64,000 nt of DNA from Eledone cirrhosa (lineage: Eukaryota). Within the stretch, counting starts at the first letter, position 1. The number at the start of each line of letters is the position of its first letter. A program made the position numbers and the translations under genes. The stretch is from the NCBI GenBank assembly GCA_964016885.1, contig OZ024745.1, forward strand, positions 103,416,001 through 103,480,000, written 5' to 3'. Positions 4,282 through 56,570 of this stretch are shown here, piece by piece. Below the pieces are notes generated by a model. The model was not told the DNA's origin. It ran no database searches and saw nothing but the letters and a program-made list of their open reading frames with translations.

Positions 4282-4860
4282 GCGGTGGATTAGCAGTATC
4301 GGTAGAGAGTCGGACACCATGCTTTGTAGCATAGAGTTACGGGCCTTTATGATCTGAATTCAAATCCCGCCGAGGTTAACTTTTCCTTTCATCCTTACGG
4401 GGGTCGATAAAATAAAGTACCAGTAATGCACTGGGTTAATTGCTGGCCTTGTGTCAAAAGTAGAAACACTTATTGCGGTGGATTGGCAGTATCGGGAAAG
4501 AGTCGGACACCATGCTTTGTAGCATAGAGTTACGGGCCTTTATGATCTGAATTCAAATCCCGCCGAGGTTAACTTTTCCTTTCATCCTTACGGGGGTCGA
4601 TAAAATAAAGTACCAGTAATGCACTGGGTTAATTGCTGGCCTTGTGTCAAAAGTAGAAACACTTATTGCGGTGGATTGGCAGTATCGGGAAAGAGTCGGA
4701 CACCATGCTTTGTAGCATAGAGTTACGGGCCTTTATGATCTGAATTCAAATCCCGCCGAGGTTAACTTTTCCTTTCATCCTTACGGGGTCGATAAAATAA
4801 AGCACCAGTCACGCACTAGGGTCGATTTAATTGCTGGCCTTGTGCCTATATAAGAAATCA
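4282..4860 (+). mobile_element. Head-to-tail trimer of SINE family 1 (193-bp period)
   Basis: gcggtggatt at 4282, 4475 and 4668; B-box-like gaattcaaatccc; core ctttcatccttacggggtcgataaaataaagtaccag; direct repeat tcattattaatgaaaatagc at 4264 and 4858. Confidence 0.9.
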
Positions 4861-12062: not shown

Positions 12063-12077
12063 ATATATATATATATA

Positions 12078-12715
12078 TAAGTATGTATACGTACATATAT
12101 ATATATATGTATACAGACGTACAGTAGTATGTATATACATACATACATGCACACATACATATATGTACGTATGGGTGTACCAAACATTTATTATAGTGTT
12201 CGGTTTGTTTGTAAACAAACAGCCTGAATTAAGCCGTACAGTGTGCGACAACCATCGTTGCCCTTCTGTTCAACAATGACAAAGGAACGATGAACTAGTT
12301 TCTAGCTTATTAGCTGTCATCAGCACCGTATACCTTCCTGTCAGTTGATTGAACGTTTGAAAGTATATACTTTCCTTATGCATATTAACGGCTGAGCAGC
12401 CTAATTTGCATATCAAGTGAGTTAGTCGGCCGGACGTACCGAAAACGATAAATGGAAAAAATGAAATTTCATTTCTCACTTTTAGTATGGCTGATACTTA
12501 AATATAAGTATGTATACGTACATACATATATGTATACAGACGTACAGTAGCATGTATATACATATATACATGCACACATATATATATGTATGTATGGATT
12601 TTCCGAACATTTATTATAATGTTCGGTTTGTTTGTAAACAAACAGCCCGAATTAAGCCGTACAGTGTTCGGCAACCATCATTGCCCTTTTGTTCAACACT
12701 GACAAAGGAACTGAC
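12078..12715 (-). mobile_element. HHR-bearing 420-430-bp tandem element, about 1.5 units
   Basis: aagtatgtatacgtacata recurs at about 12079 and 12506; reverse complement of the 14670-15575 family. Confidence 0.85.
12287..12329 (-). ncRNA. Type I hammerhead ribozyme (family F1)
   Basis: Minus strand: acggtg CTGATGA c-agct-aata-agct-a GAAA ctag TT catcgt; stem I pairs and stem III ACTAGT is palindromic. Confidence 0.8.
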
Positions 12716-14590
12716 AAAGCTACTTGTTGTGAATCTTGGACTCAGTGATGGCTATCACATCTATACAATGTGACCTGAGATCATTTAAAAGCTGGCCCTG
12801 CTTCCAGGGCATGCCCAGGCCACATACATTCAAACATTCAACTTGTATAGTCGCCTTGTTGGTGAAGAAGAGTTAAGGAGAGAAAAGGCAGGAACACTTA
12901 CCTTTTCGTTTCCTGGAAGTCGGGTTGTTCGATCTCCATGTCCAGATTGGGGGTGTTTGGAGGGAATCCTTTTAGCAGGACACGGTTAAGGGGTTTTTGA
13001 CAAGGGGGGGGGGGGCACATCATGTGGGAAGTTCCCTTTTAAAGTTTCGTACTGTAGGGTTGTTACCCCAATAGGTTTGAGGTTTGGGGGTGGGTCGTTG
13101 GGTGGGAAGGTTTTCCCTTCCGTTTGTATTGTGGGGTCCTTTTGGACAGTTTCCACCAGTTCTTTGTTTCTTGTTTTTATAAATGTGTAATGTGTTTTGT
13201 TTTTTATGTGTACTGTTTCTGTTTGTAGTTTTCTTTTTATGGTTAGGGTTTGTATTGTTGTGGTGTGGGTGTTTGTTTTGTTGGTGAAGTGTCTGGATGT
13301 GTTGTTGATGTGGTTGTCATTTGTGGCAGTATGTTTATGTCAGTGTTGTGTGTGTGCGTGTTTTCAGTTGATGTTTTTGTTGTATTTTTTCTGTGTCTTT
13401 TTTGCTTCTTGGATTTTGGGGGTTCCTCTTCATCCTCACTTGGAGATGTTGAGGTTCCCGTGTCTGAGATTTTATCATTGTGGGTAGGTAGGAGGGGTAT
13501 GTTGTGTGGTGGTGGAGTGTTTATGTGTGTGTTTGTGGGAGTGTCGGACAGAGGGGGAAGGGGTGGGACAGAGTCCTACAGGGGAATATTTGGTGTGGTG
13601 TCTTTTGTGGTTTGTGATGGTTGGGTGAATGTTGATGGTTTGGGGGTTGTGTTTTTTTGTTTTCAGGTGTGTCTGTTGTAGTTTTGGCTTTGGCAACAGC
13701 GCCTTCTTTTGTTTTTCCACATCCATCATTGGGCAAAATGCTTTTAAATGTGTTTATTCCACATTGGAAACATTGTGGTCTTTTGCCCTCCACTGCGATG
13801 AGGACAACATGGTTATCATCCACCGGCACCCTTTCCGGTATTTTTTCAATCCTCTTCGGTTTCATTTGAACCAAAAGCTCCATTAAGGTCCTGCTCCAGT
13901 TCTGTCGGATTGATTTTTTTACAGAGAGGAGGTTGTCTTCACCCTCCTCCAAAAAACCACCCAGGATCCACCAAATGTTGGTGTTCAGTGGGATCTGGGA
14001 GATCCTTATTTTATGGGTTCTTCTTCCCATGTATGTTGGTAAGATGTGTTGGCTCGTTCTAAATGGAGCCACAGAATATTTCTGGGCAAGGGCCTCGCTT
14101 TTAAAGAGCACCTATATGCTCCCGTACTGCTTGGACCTCTGGAGGTAAGCAATGTCTGGCATTGCCTCCTTTAGTGCGGTTTCCACCGTGCTATTGCTTA
14201 AAGCCATAGGTTTCTTGGTTTGTGAGCAGATCGTCCCGAAGAAAATTGTTTTTCTTAAGGTCGCGGCCCTAATTTCTGGTGGGGTACTTATTTGACAGCC
14301 GTTACCCTCGAAAGTTATATGTTGCACAGCGGCCTTTAGGTTTTGTTATATGTTGCACAGCATCCTTTAGGTTTGGTTTGACAGATTTATTTCTATAAAC
14401 TCTGTCTCTTTGGCAAGGCTTTCTGCAAACGTTTTTTTTTTTTGTGGTGTTTGGTTGTTTTCGTTTGTGCTGTAGTTGTTGTTTTATATTTATATATACG
14501 TATATATATTTATATATACGTATAAATAAATAGTTGCTGAAATGCTGAAAGCATCTGGAAGGGTGGGACACACTATCGTCACTCGGATAG
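12716..14590 (-). mobile_element. L1/Tx1-like LINE 5' half (5' UTR, disrupted ORF1, start of ORF2 APE domain)
   Basis: ORFs 14112-14327 and 13521-14111 end in VEGKRPQCFQCG (zinc-knuckle start); 12720-12854 translates to ATIQVECLNVCGL...KQGQLLNDLRSHCIDVIAITESK, the APE N-terminal LNVxGL/DVIxxxE motif. Confidence 0.75.
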
Positions 14591-14899
14591 TAAACGTACA
14601 TGCATATATGTATACAGACGTACAGTAGTATGTATACATATATACATACATGCACACATATATATGTACGTATGTATACATACTACTGTACGTCTGTATA
14701 CATATATGTATGTACGTGTACATACTTATATTTAAGTAACAGCCGTACTAAGAGTGGGAAATGAAATTTCGTTTCATTTTTTCCGTTTATCGTTTTCGGT
14801 GCACCCGGCCGATTAACCCACTCGGTATGCAAATTGGGCTACTCAGCCGTTAATATGCATAAGGTAAGTATATACGTTCAAAATCTGGCAGAAAGGTAT

Positions 14900-14942
14900 A
14901 CGTTGCTGACGATAGCTAATAAGCTTGAAACTAGTACAGCGT
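14900..14942 (+). ncRNA. Type I hammerhead ribozyme (F1)
   Basis: acgttg CTGACGA t-agct-aata-agct-t GAAA ctag TA cagcgt; predicted cleavage after 14936. Confidence 0.85.
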
Positions 14943-15319
14943 TCCTTTGTCAGTGTTGAACAAACGAGCAACGATGGTTGCTAGACACTACGGCCTAATA
15001 CGGGATGTTTGTTTACAAACACACCGAGCATTATAATAAATGTTCGGTGAATCCATACGTACATATATATATGTGTGCATGTAAGTAGATATATAAACAT
15101 ACTACTGTACGTCTGTATACATATATGTATGTACGTGTACATACTTATATTTAAGTAACAGCCGCACTAAGAGTGGGAAATGAAATTTCGTTTCATTTTT
15201 TCCGTTTATCGTTTTTGGCGCCCCCGGCCGATTAACCCAGTTGATATGCAAATTGGGCTACTCAGCCGTTAATATGCATAAGGTAAGTATATACGTTCAA
15301 CAATCTGGCAGGAAGGTAT

Positions 15320-15362
15320 ACGTTGCTGACGATAGCTAATCAGCTTGAAACTAGTACAGCGT
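15320..15362 (+). ncRNA. Type I hammerhead ribozyme (F1)
   Basis: Same motif 420 bp downstream; predicted cleavage after 15356. Confidence 0.85.
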
Positions 15363-15585
15363 TCCTTTGTCAGTGTTGAACAAAGGAGCAACGATGGTTG
15401 CTAGACACTACGGCTTAATACGGGATGTTTGTTTACAAACACACCGACCATTATAATAAATGTTCGGTGAATCCATACGTACATATATATATGTGTGCAT
15501 GTATGTAGATATATATACATACTACTGTACGTCTGTATACATACATGTATGTACGTGTACATACTTATATGTATATATATATATA

Positions 15586-15635
<50 letters not shown>

Positions 15636-17959: not shown

Positions 17960-18375
<416 letters not shown>

Positions 18376-18418
18376 TATATATACAGATAAAAAATCTAAA
18401 TATACAGATAGGAAATAT

Positions 18419-20705
18419 ATGTATGATTTCATTACTTACAAGAATCCACCACACAACTCTCTACTTGAAGACTTTGAGAAAGACCTTTTTAATTTAATTA
18501 AACACCTCAAATTTAAGAAGTATAAATCTATCTTTCAAAAGGACCTTGATTCTACCCTATTGGACCTAAAAAAGTCTAAAAAAATCCATGTCCACTCGGA
18601 CAAAACTGGAAACTTATATCACATGGATATTGAAAATTACAATGAGTTCATATATAAAGAACTCAGGAAAAATTATAGAAAAACTAATAATGCGTCACTC
18701 ACCAACATCAACAACAAAACACACAACATAGTGAATAAACTAAATATTGAAGATAGAACTGAACCTTTGGCATTGAAAAAACCACACTTCAACCTGAAAA
18801 ATCAAACTTTAACTCAAATCCTTCTATAAGACTTATATGTCCCTCCAAATCTGATATTGGAATAATTAGCAAAAACATTTTGGATAGAGTCATCCCACAA
18901 ATAAGAAAACATGTTAATTTACCACTCTGGGAAAACACTTCCCAGGTAATTAACTGGTTTAAAAATATTAGATGTAAATCTTCTGCTTCATTTCTACAAT
19001 TTGATATAGATAATTACTATTCTTCTATATCACCTATACTCCTGAACAAAGCTTTGATATTTGCAAAAAATAGATCTAACTTAACTTTGGATGACATTAA
19101 TATTATTACACATGCTAGACTAACACTTATTGAATTTCAGAATGAATACTGGACCAGAAACACATATAGTAATCTATTTGATATTACTATGGGTTCAAGC
19201 GATTCTGCCCAAATTACTGATCTTGTGGGCCTCTTTCTTCTTTTTAACATAAATGCTTCCTTTCCCCACCTTAAAGGTGGTTTATATCGTGATGACTGTC
19301 TTCTTCTTTCCAACAACCTTAGCCTCTCAGAAATAGAAAAAAACAAAAAGCTTATTAGAACTTTCCTTAAAGACTATTATAGTCTTCATATTACTTTTGA
19401 AAACACAAGTAAAGTAGTTAATTTCCTAGATATAACTTTAGACTTAGCTACGGGTATCTACCAACCTTACCATAAACCCAACCAAAACTTACACTACATA
19501 CACTCACAATCTAATCACCCTAAATCTATCCTTAAAAACCTTGCATATAATATATCACTTAGAATTTCTAACCTTTCGTCTAACCAAGATGTATTTGATA
19601 AAAATGCGACCTTCTATAACGAAGCTCTAGATAGAAGTGGCCACAAAAATAGATTGGAATATATACCTTCTACTAATAACACTATAAACATACAACCTAA
19701 TATTACCAACAAACACCAAATGAAAAGTACACACCTAAATGCCACTCACACTATACCCCAAAATGCCAACATAAAACCAAATTTCTCTAACTCCTCTAAT
19801 ATAAAGTATAGTAACTCTCAAAAAACTACTCATCATACAACTCTAATAAATGTTAATAATAAAACTCCTAATAAACAAGCTAAAACACCTAAATCAATAA
19901 ATCTAACTAAAAATGTGCGTGGTGAGGTCATTAACATTAATCCTCCTAGTAAACATCACGATGCATCCTATAAAAACAATAAACAACATAGAAACCGTAA
20001 TAGACGAGTTACTTGGTATAATGCTCCATTTAATTTACAAATTAAGGATAATATAGCTAAAAAAATGTTTAATATTCTAGAGAAAAACTTCCCGCCAAAC
20101 CACAAATACCATCAAATCTTAAATAGATCAACAGTTAAATTCTCATACTCAACAACCAAAAACATAAAACAAAATATAAGTGCCTATAATGCATATAAAT
20201 GTAAAAAAAAACCATAAGTATACTACCAATACATCAAACTAACCATAATATCTCCTCAAATACAGAATTAACGAAAGGTTGTAACTGTAGAAACAAAGCA
20301 AACTGCCCATTAAAAGGAAATTGTCTTGTTAACAACATAGTTTATAAATGTAAAGTTAAAACTAAAGATTCTATTTGCTCATATATAGGAGCTACTTCTA
20401 ACAATTTTAAGGTAAGGTTTAATACCCACAAACATAGTTTTAAAAATGCCGCACTGGCTAATACAACATCTCTAGCAGAAAAAATTAATAGTTATAGAAA
20501 TAAGAATATAGAATATGATATGACCTGGAGTGTGCTCAAAAGAGCCACCCCTTATCAAAATAATAGAAATGAATGTAGATTGTGTTCCCAAGAACTATTT
20601 GAAATAATGAAATCTAAGGATATCCTATTAAATAAGCGACAGGAATTAATTATATCGTGTAATCATAAACTGAGAAAAACATTTAAATATTATAAACCTA
20701 ATTAA
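18419..20705 (+). pseudogene. PLE RT/GIY-YIG polyprotein broken by frameshifts (about 18800 and 20210)
   Basis: ORFs 18419-18829, 18880-20217 and 20520-20705 are collinear pieces of one PLE ORF. Confidence 0.88.
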
Positions 20706-21600
20706 TAATATATATTTTAGAAATTAATATATAAATTAATTTAAATGTAGTTAACCTATAATTTTAATTTAATTAAAATTCTACTACAGATGAAATTTAA
20801 AAAATATCGTGTAATCATAAACTGTGAAAAACTTTTAAATATTATTAACATAATTAATATATACTTTGGAAATTAATATATAGATTAATTTTAGTTTATT
20901 TAACCTTTTATTAAAATTCCTTTACAGATGAAATATAACAAAATATCGTGTAATCAATAACAGAGAAATACTTTTTAATATTATAAACCTAATTAATATA
21001 CAATTTAGAAATTAATTTATAAATTAATTTTAATTTAGTTAACCTATAATTTTAATGTAGTTAGCTTAAAATTAAAATTCTAATACAGATGGATTGCAGA
21101 ATATCGTGTAATCATAAACTGAGAAAAACTTTTAAATATATACCTAATTAATATATTCTTTACAAATAAATATATAGATTAATTTTAATTGAGTTAACCT
21201 ATAATTATATTCTACTATAGATAAAATACAAAATTTTGCTCTAATCATTATAAACCTAATTAACATATACTATAGAAATTAATATATAATTTTTAATTTA
21301 GTTAACCTATAATTAATATTCTACTACCGATGTAATACTTAATTTGGCTTTCCCTATTACAAAATTCATTTCCTAAAATAAATTGATACCATCATGTTAA
21401 TATCTTTAATTTAGTTATGCTATAATTAATACTCTACTACTGTTTAACTTCAAAATTCCGCTTTAAATATTATAAACCTAAGTAGTATACACCTTAGAAA
21501 TTAATATATTAACTATTTTTACTTTAATTAACCTATAATTAATAGTCTACTTATATTAAAATGCATAATTTAGCCTTCTTTCTTACAAATACCATTTCCT
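20650..21600 (+). repeat. Degenerating 140-155-bp tandem repeat seeded by the PLE stop-codon region
   Basis: atatcgtgtaatca at about 20652, 20804, 20943 and 21100; tataaacctaattaa and ttaacctataatt recur further downstream. Confidence 0.8.
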
Positions 21601-21798
21601 AATACTGACACTACTATGTAAACACATATTATGATTTAAATGCAGATTAATATTCTATGTTCCTTGAAACCTATATTTACTATTTCCCACTAATAATTTT
21701 AATCCCCCCCCCCCATAATTATTCGTATTTGTAAGCGTGGATATATGTATGTGTATGTAAGTATGTATGTATGTTTGTGTGTAAATAAGTGTGTATGA

Positions 21799-25301: not shown

Positions 25302-28626
<3,325 letters not shown>

Positions 28627-29002: not shown

Positions 29003-29008
<6 letters not shown>

Positions 29009-31023
29009 TAAAAATAATGAATAAAAACAAAGAAACAGTTCCTTATTTTAAAAATTCATCATTTTACGATCGTTTCTAGGATATATATGTTTGTGTTGGT
29101 ATGTATATCATATAGATCTATGTAAAATTTTTACAAACTATCAGAGGGAATATACATACCTACACATATATATGCTGTCTTCAGAAATAATGATATTTGT
29201 TTATTGAAAAAAACCAACAAAGATTTAATATAATATGTCTGTTTGGGAACAGCTTTTGAATTGACCAATAGAAAGGTAGTAAATGGTCAAGATGGTAAAA
29301 TAGTAGTAATAGAACTTTAATTTAGGGGTAGAGGAAGGCAGATTTCAGTTTTGAATGGAAAGAGTATGATGAATGAAAAGATTATTTTAGGGATGAAAAT
29401 AGGTCAAGTCGGTAAAAGGTATACGAAAAATTGATGTTATAAAAGAATAATGCCAATGTAAATATCCAAGGAGAATAAAATTTTACGATAAATGTGTTAG
29501 TGAAAAATATCAATCTTATTTAAAATATAGGGAATTTACATATATAAAAAGAAAATAAATTAATTAAATTGATAGGTATATTTATATTGATAAATTTATA
29601 TTAATGCATATAAATATGATAAATAAGAGTTAGATGTAATTGAAGAGTGCTATTAAAAACGAAGGGAAAATAAAAAAATAAAAAAATAATAATTATTATT
29701 ATTGGGGGGGGGGGGGGGGTTAAATTTATTAGTGAGAAATAACAAATTTATATAGATTATAAGGAACATAGAATCATAACCTGAAATTAAAATAGTTTAT
29801 ATGTATACTTAATGGTATAAATTTTAGGAAAAGATAGTTGTAAACTTTTTGAAATAATGAAATCTAAGGATATCCTATTAAATAAGCGACAGGAATTAAG
29901 TATATCATGTAATCATAAACTAAGAAGAACTTTTAAATATTATAAACCTAATTAATATACACTTTAGAAATTATTATAATAACACTTTTTTTAAATTAGT
30001 TATCCTATAATTAATATTCTACTACTAATGAATTACATAATTTTATTTCCCTTTTACAGCTATCTTTTCCTAAAATTTATACCATTAAGTATACATATAA
30101 ACTATTTTAATTTCAGGTTATGATTCTATGTTCCTTATAATCTATATAAATTTGTTATTTCTCACTAATAAATTTACCCCCCCCCCCCCCTCCCCCAATA
30201 ATTTTTTTTTTTTTTTTTTTTTTCCCTTCGTTTTTAATAGCACTCTTCAATTACATCTAACTCTTATTTATCATATCTATATGCATTAATATAAATTTAT
30301 CAATATAAATATACTTATCAATTTAATTAATTTATTTTCTTTTTATAGATGTAAATTCCCTATATTTTAAATAAGATTGATATTTTTCACTAACACATTT
30401 ATCGTAAAATTTTATTCTCCTTAGATATTTACATTGGCATTATTCTTTTATAACATCAATTTTTCGTATACCTTTTACCGACTTGACCTATTTTCATCCC
30501 TAAAATAATCTTTTCATTCATCATACTCTTTCCATTCAAAATTGAAATCTGCCTTCCTCTACCCCTAAATTAAAGTTCTATTACTACTATTTTACCATCT
30601 TGACCATTTACTACCTTTCTATTGGTCAATTCAAAACCTGTTCCCAAACAGACCTATTATATTAAATCTTTGTTGGTTTTTTTTCAATAAACAAATATCA
30701 TTATTTCTGAAGACAGCATATATATGTGTAGGTATGTATATTCCCTCTGATAGTTTGTAAAAATTTTACATAGATCTATATGATATACATACCAACACAA
30801 ACATATATATCCTAGAAACGATCGTAAAATGATGAATTTTTTAATATAAGGAACTGTTTCTTTGTTTTTATTCATTATTTTTATTAATTTATCTTGACTC
30901 TGTTTTCCTGTATTTTTCATCGGAAAAAAATGTTTGAATACATCTCTTTTCATGATATTCGGATTACATTGAGTTCTTCATACGGATTGGACACTACCGT
31001 ACATTTTGGTAGATTTATCTACA
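29003..31023 (+). mobile_element. PLE 3' end with about 840-bp inverted duplication (relative of the 18376 family)
   Basis: 29003-29844 is the reverse complement of 30052-30888; spacer 29845-29955 matches the last codons of the PLE ORF at 20595-20705; TA tracts on both sides. Confidence 0.9.
30697..30833 (+). ncRNA. Hammerhead ribozyme with about 100-nt stem II (F6); mirror copy about 29058-29195 (-)
   Basis: attt CTGAAGA (30707), long hairpin (ggtatgtatat/atatacatacc and atatatatgt/acatatatat), GAAA cgatcg TA aaatgat; stem III ACGATCGT is palindromic. Confidence 0.7.
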
Positions 31024-31088: not shown

Positions 31089-31154
31089 GTTATTCCGGGT
31101 TGAATCGGAGGTAACCACAGTAAGTAAGGTACTCAATACATAGCAGAGTATAAC

Positions 31155-31277
31155 AGTTTTAATATAGATGAGATTCTACAGGACTAGAACTGTTTCATTC
31201 ATTAGAAATCATCAGGAATCCTGATGATTTCTAATGAATGAAACAGTTCTAGTCCTGTAGAATCTCATCTATATTAA

Positions 31278-31281
<4 letters not shown>
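31155..31281. repeat. Perfect 63-bp-arm palindrome with back-to-back HHR cores (F7)
   Basis: Centre atcagga-a-tcctgat at 31218; ctgatga-tttctaatgaat-gaaac on each strand. Confidence 0.85.
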
Positions 31282-31331
<50 letters not shown>

Positions 31332-31334
<3 letters not shown>

Positions 31335-31545
31335 AAGGTATACATTGCTGACGATAGCTAATAAGCTTGAAACTAGTACAGTGTTCCTTTGTCAGTGTTG
31401 AACAAACGAGCAACGATGGTTGCTAGACACTACGGCTTAATACGGGATGTTTGTTTACAAACACACCGAGCATTATAATAAATGTTCGGTGAATCCATAT
31501 GTACATATATATATGTGTGCATGTATGTATATATATACACATACT
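31332..31545 (+). mobile_element. Partial unit of the 420-bp HHR element (F1 HHR at 31342-31384)
   Basis: acattg CTGACGA tagctaataagctt GAAA ctag TA cagtgt; matches 14890-15100. Confidence 0.85.
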
Positions 31546-34981: not shown

Positions 34982-37901
<2,920 letters not shown>

Positions 37902-40363: not shown

Positions 40364-40453
40364 CTTACATTACTGTGGTTTCAGCTCCACTGAATTAGGA
40401 AGCTATTTAAATAGCTTCCTAATTCAGTGGAGCTGAAACCACAGTAATGTAAG
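40364..40453. repeat. Perfect 90-bp palindrome without spacer
   Basis: cttacattactgtggtttcagctccactgaattaggaagctattt|aaatagcttcc...gtaatgtaag. Confidence 0.9.
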
Positions 40454-42558: not shown

Positions 42559-43147
42559 GTGAGTGTATGTACGTATAGCTACGTATGAGTATGTGTGTGT
42601 ATGTGGGTGCGTATGTGTATATATATATGTGTGTGTGGGGGTGCGGGTGTATGAATATGTGGGCCTCTATATATGTGTATGTGTATTTGTGTATACATGT
42701 ATATGTTTATGTACATTTCACAGGAATGAGTACGGATTATTATATATGGATTATATATACATTTGATTACTATTATTTTTATTATTTTATCATGTATCCA
42801 TTGTATATATCGGTATATGTATGTATGAATGTGTGTGCATGTGTTTATATAGAGATATAGAGATATTATATTGTATACTATATTGATATTTTATGTTATG
42901 TTATTTTACCGTTATTTTATGGTATATTGTTTTTTATTATATAATGTATTTTTAATTTACGGTTTTGTTTATATATGTATATGTGGAAACGTGTGTGTAA
43001 GCAAATATGCATATGTGCAGGTGTCTGCATGTGGCAGTCCGTGTGCATATGTATATGTAGATGTATATATGTCTGCATGTATATATGTATGTATGTGTGT
43101 GGGTGCGTGTATGTATGTAGTGTTTTTATATATATATATATATATGT

Positions 43148-43610
43148 AAGTATGTATGTATACGTACATACACATATGTATACAGACGTACAGTAGCATG
43201 CATATATATATATATATACATATATATACATACAGGTACACATACATATATGTACGTATCAGTTTAGCGGACGCTTATTATAACGCCCGCTTTGTTCGTT
43301 TGTAAACAAACTGAACAGCCTGAATTTATGCCGTACGGTGTTAAGGCAACCACGTCACCTTTTTGTTCAACACTGACACAGGAACGATGTACTAGTTTCA
43401 AGCTTGTTAGCTATCATCAACACCGTATACCCTTCTACCAGATGGTTGAACGTTCGAAAGTATATACTTTCCTTATGAAAATTAACGGCTGAGCAGCCTG
43501 TTTTGCATATCGAGTGCATATGTGCATATGTGTATGTACGTATACATACATACTTACATTTAAGTAAGTGCCGTACTAAGAGTGAGAAATGAAATTTCGT
43601 TTTCATTTTA
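43148..43610 (-). mobile_element. Single unit of the 420-bp HHR element (HHR 43384-43426, core C>T)
   Basis: Collinear with 12078-12500. Confidence 0.8.
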
Positions 43611-43892
43611 TTACAACTTATATATATATATATATATACATTATGAAGAGAGAAGAAACATTTAGATATAATTAATAATAAAATGTATCATACCTAAACT
43701 GCTCCTATATTCCTCGACTACGTAGTTTCGTGGCATAAACAAAAACAATACATCATAAAGATATAGAGTCCTTGCGAGGTCTGCCGACTTATCAAGAGGT
43801 TACCTCATTTATATATATATATATGTGTGTGTGTCTGTATGTGTGTATGTAATTTTGTGTACGTATGTATATTTTGTATGTATGTGTGTGCA

Positions 43893-52280: not shown

Positions 52281-55200
52281 AGTGACAATTATGATGGTGA
52301 TGGGAGTTATGATGACAATTATGATGGTGATGGGAGTTATGATGACAGTTATGATGGTGATGGGAGTTATGATGACAGTTATGATGGTGATGGGAGTTAT
52401 GATGACAGTTATGATGGTGATGGGAGTTATGATGACAGTTATGATTGCAGTTATGATGGTGATGGGAGTTATGATGACAGTTATGATGGTGATGGGAGTT
52501 ATGATTACAGTTATGATGGTGATGGGAGTTATCATTACAGTTATGATGGTGATGGGAGTTTTGATGACAGTTATGATGGTGATGGGAGTTATGATGACAG
52601 GTATGATGGTGATGGGAGTTATGATTACAGTTATGATGGTGATGGGAGTTATGATTGCAGTTATGATGGTGATGGGAGTTATGATGACAGTTATGATGGT
52701 GATGGGAGTTATGATGACAGTTATGATGGTGATGGGAGTTATGATGACAGTTATGATGGTGATGGGAGTTATGATGACAGTTATGATTGCAGTTATGATG
52801 GTGATGGGAGTTATGATGACAGTTATGATGGTGATGGGAGTTATGATTACAGTTATGATGGTGATGGGAGTTATGATTACAGTTATGATGGTGATGGGAG
52901 TTATGATGACAGTTATGATTACAGTTATGATGGTGATGGGAGTTATGATTACAGTTATGATGGTGAAGGGAGTTATGATGACAGTTATGATGGTGATGGG
53001 AGTTATGATTACAGTTATGATGGTGATGGGAGTTATGATGACAGTTATGATGGTGAAGGGAGTTATGATGACAGTTATGATGGTGATGGGAGTTATGATG
53101 ACAGTTATGATGGTGATGGGAGTTATGATGACAGTTATGATGGTGATGGGAGTTATGATGACAGTTATGATTGCAGTTATGATGGTGATGGGAGTTATGA
53201 TGACAGTTATGATGGTGATGGGAGTTATGATTACAGTTATGATGGTGATGGGAGTTATGATTACAGTTATGATGGTGATGGGAGTTATGATGACAGTTAT
53301 GATTACAGTTATGATGGTGATGGGAGTTATGATTACAGTTATGATGGTGAAGGGAGTTATGATGACAGTTATGATGGTGATGGGAGTTATGATTACAGTT
53401 ATGATGGTGATGGGAGTTATGATGACAGTTATGATGGTGAAGGGAGTTATGATGACAGTTATGATGGTGATGGGAGTTATGATTACAGTTATGATGGTGA
53501 TGGGAGTTATGATGACAGTTATGATGGTGAAGGGAGTTATGATGACAGTTATGATGGTGATGGGAGTTATGATGAGAGTTATGATGGTGATGGGAGTTAT
53601 GATGACAGTTATGATGGTGATGGGAGTTATGATGACAGTTATGATGGTGATGGGAGTTATGATGAGAGTTATGATGGTGATGGGAGTTATGATGACAGTT
53701 ATGATGGTGAAGGGAGTTATGATGACAGTTATGATGGTGATGGGAGTTATGATGACAGTTATGATGGTGATGGGAGTTATGATGACAGTTATGATGGTGA
53801 TGGGAGTTATGATGACAGTTATGATTGCAGTTATGATGGTGATGGGAGTTATGATGACAGTTATGATGGTGATGGGAGTTATGATGACAGTTGTGATGGT
53901 GATGGGAGTTATGATGACAGTTATGATGGTGATGGGAGTTATGATGACAGTTATGATGGTGATGGGAGTTATGATGACAGTTATGATTGCAGTTATGATG
54001 GTGATGGGAGTTATGATGACAGTTATGATGGTGATGGGAGTTATGATTACAGTTATGATGGTGATGGGAGTTATGATTACAGTTATGATGGTGATGGGAG
54101 TTATGATGACAGTTATGATTACAGTTATGATGGTGATGGGAGTTATGATTACAGTTATGATGGTGAAGGGAGTTATGATGACAGTTATGATGGTGATGGG
54201 AGTTATGATTACAGTTATGATGGTGATGGGAGTTATGATGACAGTTATGATGGTGATGGGAGTTATGATGACAGTTATGATGGTGATGGGAGTTATGATT
54301 ACAGTTATGATGGTGAAGGGAGTTATGATGACAGTTATGATGGTGATGGGAGTTATGATTACAGTTATGATGGTGATGGGAGTTATGATGACAGTTATGA
54401 TGGTGATGGGAGTTATGATGACAGTTATGATGGTGATGGGAGTTATGATGACAGTTATGATGGTGATGGGAGTTATGATGACAGTTATGATGGTGATGGG
54501 AGTTATGATGACAGTTATGATTGCAGTTATGATGGTGATGGGAGTTATGATGACAGTTATGATGGTGATGGGAGTTATGATTACAGTTATGATGGTGATG
54601 GGAGTTATCATTACAGTTATGATGGTGATGGGAGTTTTGATGACAGTTATGATGGTGATGGGAGTTATGATGACAGGTATGATGGTGATGGGAGTTATGA
54701 TTACAGTTATGATGGTGATGGGAGTTATGATTGCAGTTATGATGGTGATGGGAGTTATGATGACAGTTATGATGGTGATGGGAGTTATGATGACAGTTAT
54801 GATGGTGATGGGAGTTATGATGACAGTTATGATGGTGATGGGAGTTATGATGACAGTTATGATGGTGATGGGAGTTATGATTACAGTTATGATGGTGATG
54901 GGAGTTATGATTACAGTTATGATGGTGATGGGAGTTATGATTACAGTTATGATGGTGATGGGAGTTATGATGACAGTTATGATGGGAGTTATGATGACAG
55001 TTATGATGGTGATGGGAGTTATGATGACAGTTATGATGGTGATGGGAGTTATGATGACAGTTATGATTACAGTTATGATGGTGATGGGAGTTATGATTAC
55101 AGTTATGATGGTGATGGGAGTTATGATTACAGTTATGATGGTGATGGGAGTTATGATTACAGTTATGATGGTGATGGGAGTTATGATGACAGTTATGATT

Positions 55201-56570
55201 ACAGTTATGATGGTGATGGGAGTTATGATTACAGTTATGATGGTGATGGGAGTTATGATTACAGTTATGATGGTGATGGGAGTTAGGATTACAGTTATGA
55301 TGATGATGGGAGTTATGATGACAGTTATGATTACAGTTATGATGGTGATGGGAGTTATGATGACAGTTATGATTACAGTTATGATGGTGATGGGAGTTAT
55401 GATTACAGTTATGATGGTGATGGGAGTTATGATTACAGTTATGATGGTGATGGGAGTTATGATTACAGTTATGATGGTGATGGGAGTTATGATTGCAGTT
55501 ATGATGGTGATGGGAGTTATGATTACAGTTATGATGGTGATGGGAGTTATGATGACAGTTATGATGGTGATGGGAGTTATGATGACAGTTATGATGGTGA
55601 TGGGAGTTATGATTACAGTTATGATGGTGATGGGAGTTATGATTGCAGTTATGATGGTGATGGGAGTTATGATGACAGTTATGATGGTGATGGGAGTTAT
55701 GATTACAGTTATGATGGTGATGGGAGTTATGATTACAGTTATGATGGGAGTTATGATAACAATTATGATGGTGATGGGAGTTATGATGACAGTTATGATG
55801 GTGATGGGAGTTATGATTACAGTTATGATGGTGATGGGAGTTATGATTACAGTTATGATGGTGATGGGAGTTATGATTGCAGTTATGATGGTGAAGGGAG
55901 TTATGATGACAGTTATGATGGTGATGGGAGTTATGATTGCAGTTATGATGGTGATGGGAGTTATGATGACGGTTATGATGGTGATGGGAGTTATGATGAC
56001 AGTTATGATGACAGTTATGATGGTGATGGGAGTTATGATTGCAGTTATGATGGTGAAGGGAGTTATGATGACAGTTATGATGGTGATGGGAGTTATGATG
56101 AGAGTTATGATGGTGATGGGAGTTATGATAACAATTATGATGGTGATGGGAGTTATGATGACAGTTATGATGGTGATGGGAGTTATGATAACAGTTATGA
56201 TGGCGATGGGAGTTATGATAACAGTTATGATGGCGATGGGAGTTATGATGACAGTTATGATGGTGATGGGAGTTATGATTACAGTTATGATGGTGATGGG
56301 AGTTATGATTACAGTTATGATGGTGATGGGAGTTATGATAACAGTTATGATGGCGATGGGAGTTATGATGACAGTTATGATGGTGATGGGAGTTATGATT
56401 ACAGTTATGATGGTGATGGGAGTTATGATTGCAGTTATGACAGCGATGGGAGTTATGATTACAGTTATGATGAGAATTATGATGGTGATGGGAGTTATGA
56501 TGAGAATTATGATGGTGATGGGAGTTATGATGAGAATTATGATGGGAGTTATGATGGGAGTTATAATCAC
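52281..56570. repeat. About 4.3-kb minisatellite, 30-bp unit gttatgatggtgatgggagttatgatgaca (about 140 units)
   Basis: Direct reading; 12-bp insertion and 6-bp deletion variants; four long low-complexity ORFs result from the unit. Confidence 0.97.

Follow-up and report, generated by a model that had tools for sequence, protein, structure and literature searches.

A very abundant hammerhead-bearing repeat family in Eledone cirrhosa, likely a non-LTR retrozyme mobilised by PLEs

Introduction

The genome of Eledone cirrhosa contains a family of short tandem repeats with type I hammerhead motifs that, judged from its sequence, is likely to be a new and very abundant family of animal non-LTR retrozymes with unusually direct genomic evidence for mobilisation by PLEs. 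It is described here from a window of 64,000 nucleotides (the whole stretch of DNA that was analysed, positions 103,416,001 to 103,480,000 of contig OZ024745.1, assembly GCA_964016885.1) and from searches of the 3.0-Gb genome in its 1,796 contigs. A sequence-only reading of the window had proposed a retrozyme, and this proposal has gained support from non-coding tandem units, covarying hammerheads, tens of thousands of copies and a PLE-type insertion footprint.

Animal non-LTR retrozymes and their proposed origin from PLEs have already been published (PMC7229834; bioRxiv 10.64898/2026.07.22.740005), and retrozyme circles have been reported from coral, mussel and axolotl (PMC7229834). Among molluscs, 235 hammerhead matches have been counted in the giant squid (PMC6962438) and Hydra-type PLEs with a (TA)n preference are listed for Octopus (PMC8557442); the recent Xenopus retrozyme study sampled no mollusc (bioRxiv 10.64898/2026.07.22.740005). 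Our searches of the literature on octopus and cephalopod hammerheads, retrozymes and Penelope found no description of the present family, which may be listed in the supplements of PMC7229834 or the Xenopus preprint or in repeat databases, and a search on retrozyme insertion footprints (inverted arms, target site, tail, pLTR) returned no title on that subject.

The footprint of PLEs themselves has been described, with a tail on one inverted pLTR and target duplications of 8-10 bp (PMC3846280, PMC8557442). In vitro, the tail is as long as the interval that separates two internal start sites of the RT, the two target strands are both nicked and extended, and the PLE hammerhead is dispensable for insertion (PMC11167929).

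Results

The repeat in the window is a head-to-tail tandem, as had been proposed, which TRF places at 14671-15570 with a period of 420, 2.1 copies and 96% matches. Its two units, aligned over 421 columns, show 16 differences and have in common a rare variant at 15088/15508. They were also correctly taken to be non-coding: among the window ORFs, no frame of at least 120 aa lies within the 420-bp unit. The GC content of the 420-nt monomer is 38.6%, below the 50% retrozyme criterion. A long TA-rich hairpin forms part of the unit, and at the loci inspected no LTR pair flanks an internal region around 420-bp units.

The tandem stands, and the insertion as a whole begins earlier than its proposed start, with a short inverted arm at about 14590..14634 on the minus strand (BLAST of the unit, unit positions 1-41). 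This arm lies head to head with the tandem in the same insertion and stops before the usual 3' end. The main arm (14635..15570, plus strand; TRF, self-BLAST and end context) consists of a 5'-truncated partial unit followed by two 420-bp units and runs to the short 3' end, beside which a (TA)n tract at 15566..15618 (TRF) is the likely target site. Between the two fixed 3' ends of the family lies a tail of ~59 nt, at 14732..14790 on the plus strand (end calling, fold and genome-wide junctions), that holds a bulged hairpin; in the predicted fold of the window unit the long end falls ~3 nt beyond the hairpin base. A second copy of the tail is at about 15152-15209 on the plus strand (end calling and fold).

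Three dispersed copies beside TA tracts had been pointed out, and all were recovered. The first (12063..12711, minus strand) is older, 84-89% alike, with a single hammerhead at 12323 that has C·A at the stem II base and a GUU triplet. The second (31332..31545, plus strand) is 5'-truncated, follows (TA)26 and retains an intact core at 31348. The third is an old two-armed copy (43127-43516 on the minus strand and 43525-43609 on the plus strand) whose core is mutated by a C-to-U change at its first position. Two dispersed copies of the family are adjoined by a separate hammerhead-like family with the core UUGAUAA (U3-A8 replacing C3-G8) and a long stem II, which is present at 43795 (-) and 31843 (-) in the window, at locus L236 and in three 200-kb blocks, with 9 matches in the sequence scanned.

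The window holds further repeats of other kinds. A 4.3-kb array at 52283-56545, with a 30-bp unit that leaves several frames on both strands open for 1,000-1,470 codons, is probably a minisatellite. A perfect 88-bp palindrome occupies 40365-40452, and a SINE-like unit of 193 bp is present in 2.8 tandem copies (TRF) at 4282-4822, which we take to resemble octopus SINEs.

Each 420-bp unit carries a type I hammerhead, the first at 14885..14953 (plus strand; motif scan, alignment and fold), with stem I from 14900, core at 14906-14912 and GAAA at 14927-14930, and the second at 15305..15373 (plus strand), with stem I from 15320 and core at 15326. Both have a 6-bp stem I, extended and bulged in the first, the core CUGACGA, a stem II with a 6-nt loop, and GAAA; the second has a private A-to-C change in loop 2. 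The predicted cuts, after 14936 and 15356, agree with the earlier reading, since the GUA triplets end at these positions, 420 nt apart, and they delimit a predicted cut-to-cut monomer at 14937..15356 (plus strand; triplet spacing and fold). Stem III is palindromic as claimed, a 2-bp stem within ACUAGU in both units. The type I assignment holds, and the description as minimal does not: with a stem II of 3-4 bp, a conserved 6-nt loop 2 and a stem I bulge this is a full-size hammerhead in which only stem III is minimal. In the window hammerhead the basal pair of stem II is U·U, a feature absent from the earlier reading. The motif scan also found cores of this kind at 31348 (+) and 12323 (-).

The genome-wide copy count proposed earlier was carried out with a 31-letter hammerhead pattern, which gave 13,152 + 12,456 = 25,608 exact matches and none with the reversed-pattern control, so that the motif is not there by chance. 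The first 100 matches listed group into 59 clusters, of which 38 consist of a single match, 14 include a same-strand tandem pair and 11 have matches on both arms. With a purine required at the stem II base, a second pattern gave 9,814 matches (control, 17), and the 100 of these that were listed all belong to one sister family with units of 461-470 bp. The sister family has a canonical stem II, is colinear with the 420-bp family over the whole monomer, and is outnumbered by the U·U-bearing family 25,608 to 9,814 (2.6 to 1). In three 200-kb blocks taken blind from large chromosomes, the two families cover 13,076 of 600,000 bases (2.2%), and in 664 kb no other hammerhead class is as common as the 420-bp family. 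Units range from 416 to 538 bp, and arrays reach 8-9 units in the 420-bp family and 31-32 in the sister family.

Comparison with Rfam profiles, another check that had been suggested, separated the two families. The window unit (14780-15040) gave no hammerhead match at E<=10; for the window as a whole, 150 of the 165 rows were listed and include none. The sister family matched HH9, one of the models suggested, with 36.5 bits and E 6.4e-8, below the gathering score of 52, in an alignment that takes in the stem I bulge and loop 2. Matches of the unit to Rfam miRNA families were rejected as merely the TA-rich hairpin.

Covariation was assessed in an alignment of 20 copies from both families (15 pairs, 300 cells), in which 94.3% of cells are paired and 6 of the 15 pairs have changed on both sides. 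The covariation score is 0.358, against 0.135 in shuffled and at most 0.10 in slid alignments; the number of doubly changed pairs is not above that of shuffles (246 of 500). The rows were picked for diversity and are related, coming from few subfamilies, and because they are not independent the covariation amounts to only a few events. Between the families, stem I pairs change from C-G to U-A, G-C to A-U, and U-G to G-U or U-A, stem II pairs from C-G to G-C and A-U to U-A, and the core is invariant. At the base of stem II all 5 sister rows have G-C; the remaining 15 rows form no pair there, 14 having U·U and one C·A. The variant acattg/cagtgt, cited earlier as a sign of either covariation or CpG decay, occurs in just 1 of 130 contexts and may indeed be CpG decay; the covariation itself stands, the question being settled by the non-CpG compensatory changes between families.

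In folding models, closing stem III in the monomer is predicted to cost ~5 kcal/mol, and the best predicted fold mispairs the core. Given this cost, the 2-bp palindromic stem III and the U·U at the stem II base, the window hammerhead is probably weak and dimer-dependent. As a circle, the window monomer is predicted to be 69% paired (z -7.6), within the range of 66-71% and z -6.8 to -10.4 for all five monomers folded (40 shuffles each; the TA run of one was shortened); antisense values of z are -4.9 to -7.5.

Copies have variable 5' ends, but their 3' ends fall at one of two constant positions, which correspond to ~14731 and ~14790 in the window, and (TA)n follows. The proposed junction analysis found 2,657 exact matches to the junction of long end and (TA)n and 2,833 to the head-to-tail read-through junction, and contigs of run X1, possibly from the same sample, have loose TA ends at 14790 and 15209. 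The tail between the sites measures ~59 nt in the 420-bp family and ~70 nt in the sister family; the hairpin, too, differs in length between the families, and in each of them the long end falls a few bases past it. Opposite-strand neighbours are arranged head to head in 11 of 12 cases.

Once overlapping loci had been dropped, 34 of 35 two-armed insertions had one short and one long arm end, an outcome whose probability, by our own arithmetic, is ~1e-9 if ends were independent and 50:50. The sole exception is the window insertion, which is short/short with its left arm cut off. A TA tract adjoins at least one side of 79 of 91 insertions. Target duplications, which are not discernible within TA tracts, were found at 2 of 12 TA-free insertions, with lengths of 9 and 10 bp, where non-LTR retrozymes are expected to exceed 4 bp. 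One insertion (L259), checked as a possible chimera with the opposite-strand endonuclease next to it, proved to lie in a Hydra-type frame with a 9-bp duplication; a second locus with such a neighbour (L125) is ambiguous and was left out of the count. One-end tail, inverted truncated arm, partial tandems, AT-rich target and duplications together make up the full PLE footprint, and because the insertions are shaped like those of PLEs the element likely uses a PLE enzyme.

The predicted cut site is the starting point of 6 arms at most out of 109, so insertions are not usually templated by a cut linear monomer. The largest tandems belong to the sister family (loci L244-L248), with 31-32, 20 and 15 hammerhead units at C1:5.737-5.753 Mb, C1:30.83 Mb and C1:14.04 Mb, respectively. 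The C1:30.83 Mb array has 7 and 13 hammerheads on opposite arms, and all 18 of its full monomers are identical; the nearest other array tested is 2.8% away, and two smaller arrays are likewise uniform. Rolling copying of a single circle would give identical monomers of this kind. Another array (L242) alternates in an ABAB pattern with ~14 differences, and the 31- and 15-unit sister arrays are mosaics typical of unequal exchange.

The window contains a Hydra-type PLE at 18221-20705, typed by its DKT and CxCX5C motifs as defined in PMC8557442. It forms part of a frameshifted copy (18221-21700) of a very young element with 64,044 first-look candidates genome-wide; all 150 scored matches are 98-100% identical, with open frames of up to 866 aa. 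Its 3' end consists of AT-rich repeats of 113-155 bp that include the end of the reading frame, and the window copy has no canonical hammerhead there. A fragment at 36737-37788, which we assign to Neptune from motifs presumed diagnostic of that clade, carries its own, different hammerhead. Motifs are the basis of both assignments; Pfam named none of 22 window frames as PLE and returned one PHD finger only.

Another PLE family, with hammerheads (cores at 26183, 26947 and 28270), is represented at 25916-28474 by two nearly identical 3' fragments, both two-armed, with the long end on the left, the short end on the right and a tail of ~60 nt; the end of this family also follows an endonuclease in copies at L264 and in the C1 block. 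A long inverted pair at 29005-30890 represents 3' fragments of a related Hydra-type subfamily. The short fragment at 31090-31282 is two-armed; its hammerhead, at 31215 (-), has U·U at the stem II base, and this hammerhead motif also follows a Hydra-type endonuclease in the C1 block.

The PLEs of the window had been proposed as helpers. They are not the parent, since the Hydra-type 3' end is unlike the unit and the Neptune-type element has a hammerhead of its own; with no sequence in common with the unit, they are possible helpers in trans only. The 3' ends of two Hydra-type families (60 loci) show no likeness to the 420-bp unit, and no PLE end matching the unit was found in 30 GIY-YIG loci, in 664 kb of unbiased sequence (including three 200-kb blocks) or among 20 loci with the same loop 2, a sample that is a small part of 3 Gb. 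Loci L264 and L267 were rejected as parent; the tandem family that they hold is older, is related to the unit in the part upstream of the hammerhead, and differs from it in stem III.

Among the 109 arms, the start lies at an inverted arm in 67 and within a TA tract in 16; the remaining 26 include at least 4 missed inversions, and within 600 bp upstream of these 26 there is no same-strand match to a PLE endonuclease or RT. A same-strand endonuclease lies within 1.5 kb upstream of a unit at 4 loci, with a TA tract between the two at all 4. The RT and GIY-YIG reading frame of an autonomous PLE is absent from the unit and from the copies sampled. With no PLE reading frame joined to any copy examined, the whole of the sample shows a non-autonomous element, and the finding that had been named in advance as fatal to a retrozyme, that most copies are attached to a PLE ORF, was not made.

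Discussion

That this is a non-autonomous element moved by PLE machinery seems to us highly probable. The full mechanism that we favour, and hold to be probable with less assurance, is that of a non-LTR retrozyme which cuts itself as a dimer, forms an RNA circle and is copied into (TA)n by a PLE RT-endonuclease acting in trans. Tandem transcripts would be cut as dimers by the type I hammerhead, and the released monomer would close into a circle. The helper, supplied in trans, would nick both strands of a (TA)n tract, and each nick would prime reverse transcription at a separate fixed internal site, the short one in one case and the long one in the other. Both cDNAs would continue past the ribozyme site, in some cases over many rounds, and the two truncated products would be joined head to head; long arrays would later be reshaped by unequal exchange.

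The metazoan non-LTR retrozymes of Cervera and de la Pena (2020; PMC7229834), such as the mussel elements of 350-390 bp and axolotl Rtz_331 and Rtz_353, are likewise short non-coding tandems of low GC content and very high copy number, with a type I hammerhead in each unit and a circle predicted to be self-paired. They differ from the present family in that its units are 416-538 bp long and mostly dispersed as insertions of one or a few units (38 of 59 clusters with one match, among the matches listed). The U·U pair at the stem II base recurs in axolotl HHR_Amex2 and the palindromic, near-absent stem III in HHR_Amex1 (PMC7229834), whereas here both weakening features occur within one ribozyme. 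Axolotl ribozymes with either defect are reported to cleave poorly alone and better as dimers, and to form circles (PMC7229834).

The element also falls within the putatively active class of Xenopus retrozymes as defined by Li, Clavereau and Pollet, having two consecutive units with complete hammerheads, and it coexists with many PLEs as those retrozymes do (bioRxiv 10.64898/2026.07.22.740005). In Xenopus the PLE link consists of co-occurrence and pLTR homology, whereas here it comes from insertion geometry, no pLTR homologue having been found in the sample. One of nine predicted Xenopus retrozyme dimers was reported to cleave in vitro (bioRxiv 10.64898/2026.07.22.740005).

The closest parallels in insertion structure are the endonuclease-bearing PLEs (Penelope/Poseidon, Neptune, Nematis and Hydra; PMC8557442, PMC3846280, PMC11167929), with which the family has in common partial tandems, an inverted 5'-truncated arm, a tail at one end, an AT-rich or (TA)n target, 8-10-bp duplications and a type I hammerhead with a short palindromic stem III. 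Unlike them it has no reading frame, and its tail is ~60-70 nt rather than 30-40 nt, a tail of ~60 nt being found also in another PLE family of the same genome. The minimal PLE hammerhead, with a short stem II and no elements for loop-loop contact, is not the form seen here. The non-autonomous Chlamys elements such as MRC1 (PMC8557442) are also non-coding PLE passengers with head-to-tail multicopy insertions; as described there, their 3' ends usually match that of an autonomous family and a canonical hammerhead is missing from most Chlamys, the reverse of what we find.

We can entertain a bolder version of the retrozyme reading, although the odds are somewhat against it, in which it is a parentless lineage, long independent and spread over about 2% of the sampled chromosomes, that uses coordinated twin priming. 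One PLE protein dimer would nick both strands of a TA tract and start two cDNAs at two hairpin-defined sites on one RNA circle, one site per strand, for up to 20 rounds, and a ribozyme weakened by U·U would be out-multiplying its canonical relative 2.6 to 1.

The foremost rival keeps PLE mobilisation and omits the circle: the template would be uncut linear multimers, the hammerhead would be weak, slow or used in some other step, and arrays would arise by unequal exchange. We regard this as unlikely, though it deserves serious attention, as it would fit the U·U pair plus 2-bp stem III, the numerical lead of the weakened family (25,608 to 9,814), the ABAB and mosaic arrays, the in vitro finding that uncut RNA is the main PLE substrate (PMC11167929) and the eight of nine Xenopus dimers that remained uncleaved (bioRxiv 10.64898/2026.07.22.740005). 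It accounts less well for an invariant core and compensated stems across families, or for an array in which 18 monomers, spread over its two arms, are identical, and an axolotl ribozyme with the same U·U both cleaves and yields circles (PMC7229834).

The units could instead have come from an autonomous PLE outside the sample, as its solo terminal repeats (pLTRs). Autonomous PLEs leave the same insertion signature, the unbiased sample is ~0.66 Mb of a genome that holds many PLE families, and Xenopus retrozymes often match pLTRs (bioRxiv 10.64898/2026.07.22.740005). The 2,833 exact head-to-tail read-through junctions, the arrays of up to 31 units, the TA tract that intervenes at all 4 loci with a same-strand endonuclease within 1.5 kb upstream, and the two colinear families that leave no place for a frame nevertheless make this improbable. 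A TA microsatellite expanded into a DNA-level repeat of the minisatellite, MITE or Helitron-like kind, with a vestigial hammerhead look-alike, would suit the long TA-rich hairpin within the unit and the satellite-like turnover of long arrays, but is hardly credible given fixed 3' and random 5' ends, short and long arms, 9-10-bp duplications and stem covariation, which indicate retrotransposition rather than DNA transposition.

Published support for the movement of animal retrozymes by PLEs consists of co-occurrence and terminal-repeat homology. In the retrozyme-like family of E. cirrhosa, thousands of young copies add the complete insertion footprint of PLEs, with the start sites mapped, and the rule of one short and one long end in 34 of 35 insertions, together with a two-armed array of identical units, bears on the second half of PLE integration. 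With this footprint in hand, the questions of the helper and of twin priming become directly testable, and resident Hydra-type PLEs with frames of up to 866 aa make a helper test in vitro possible. The two families also form a natural pair of ribozymes, canonical and U·U, that asks whether the rate of cleavage helps or hinders spread. With more than 35,000 motifs, they constitute a sizeable and apparently unannotated part of this genome.
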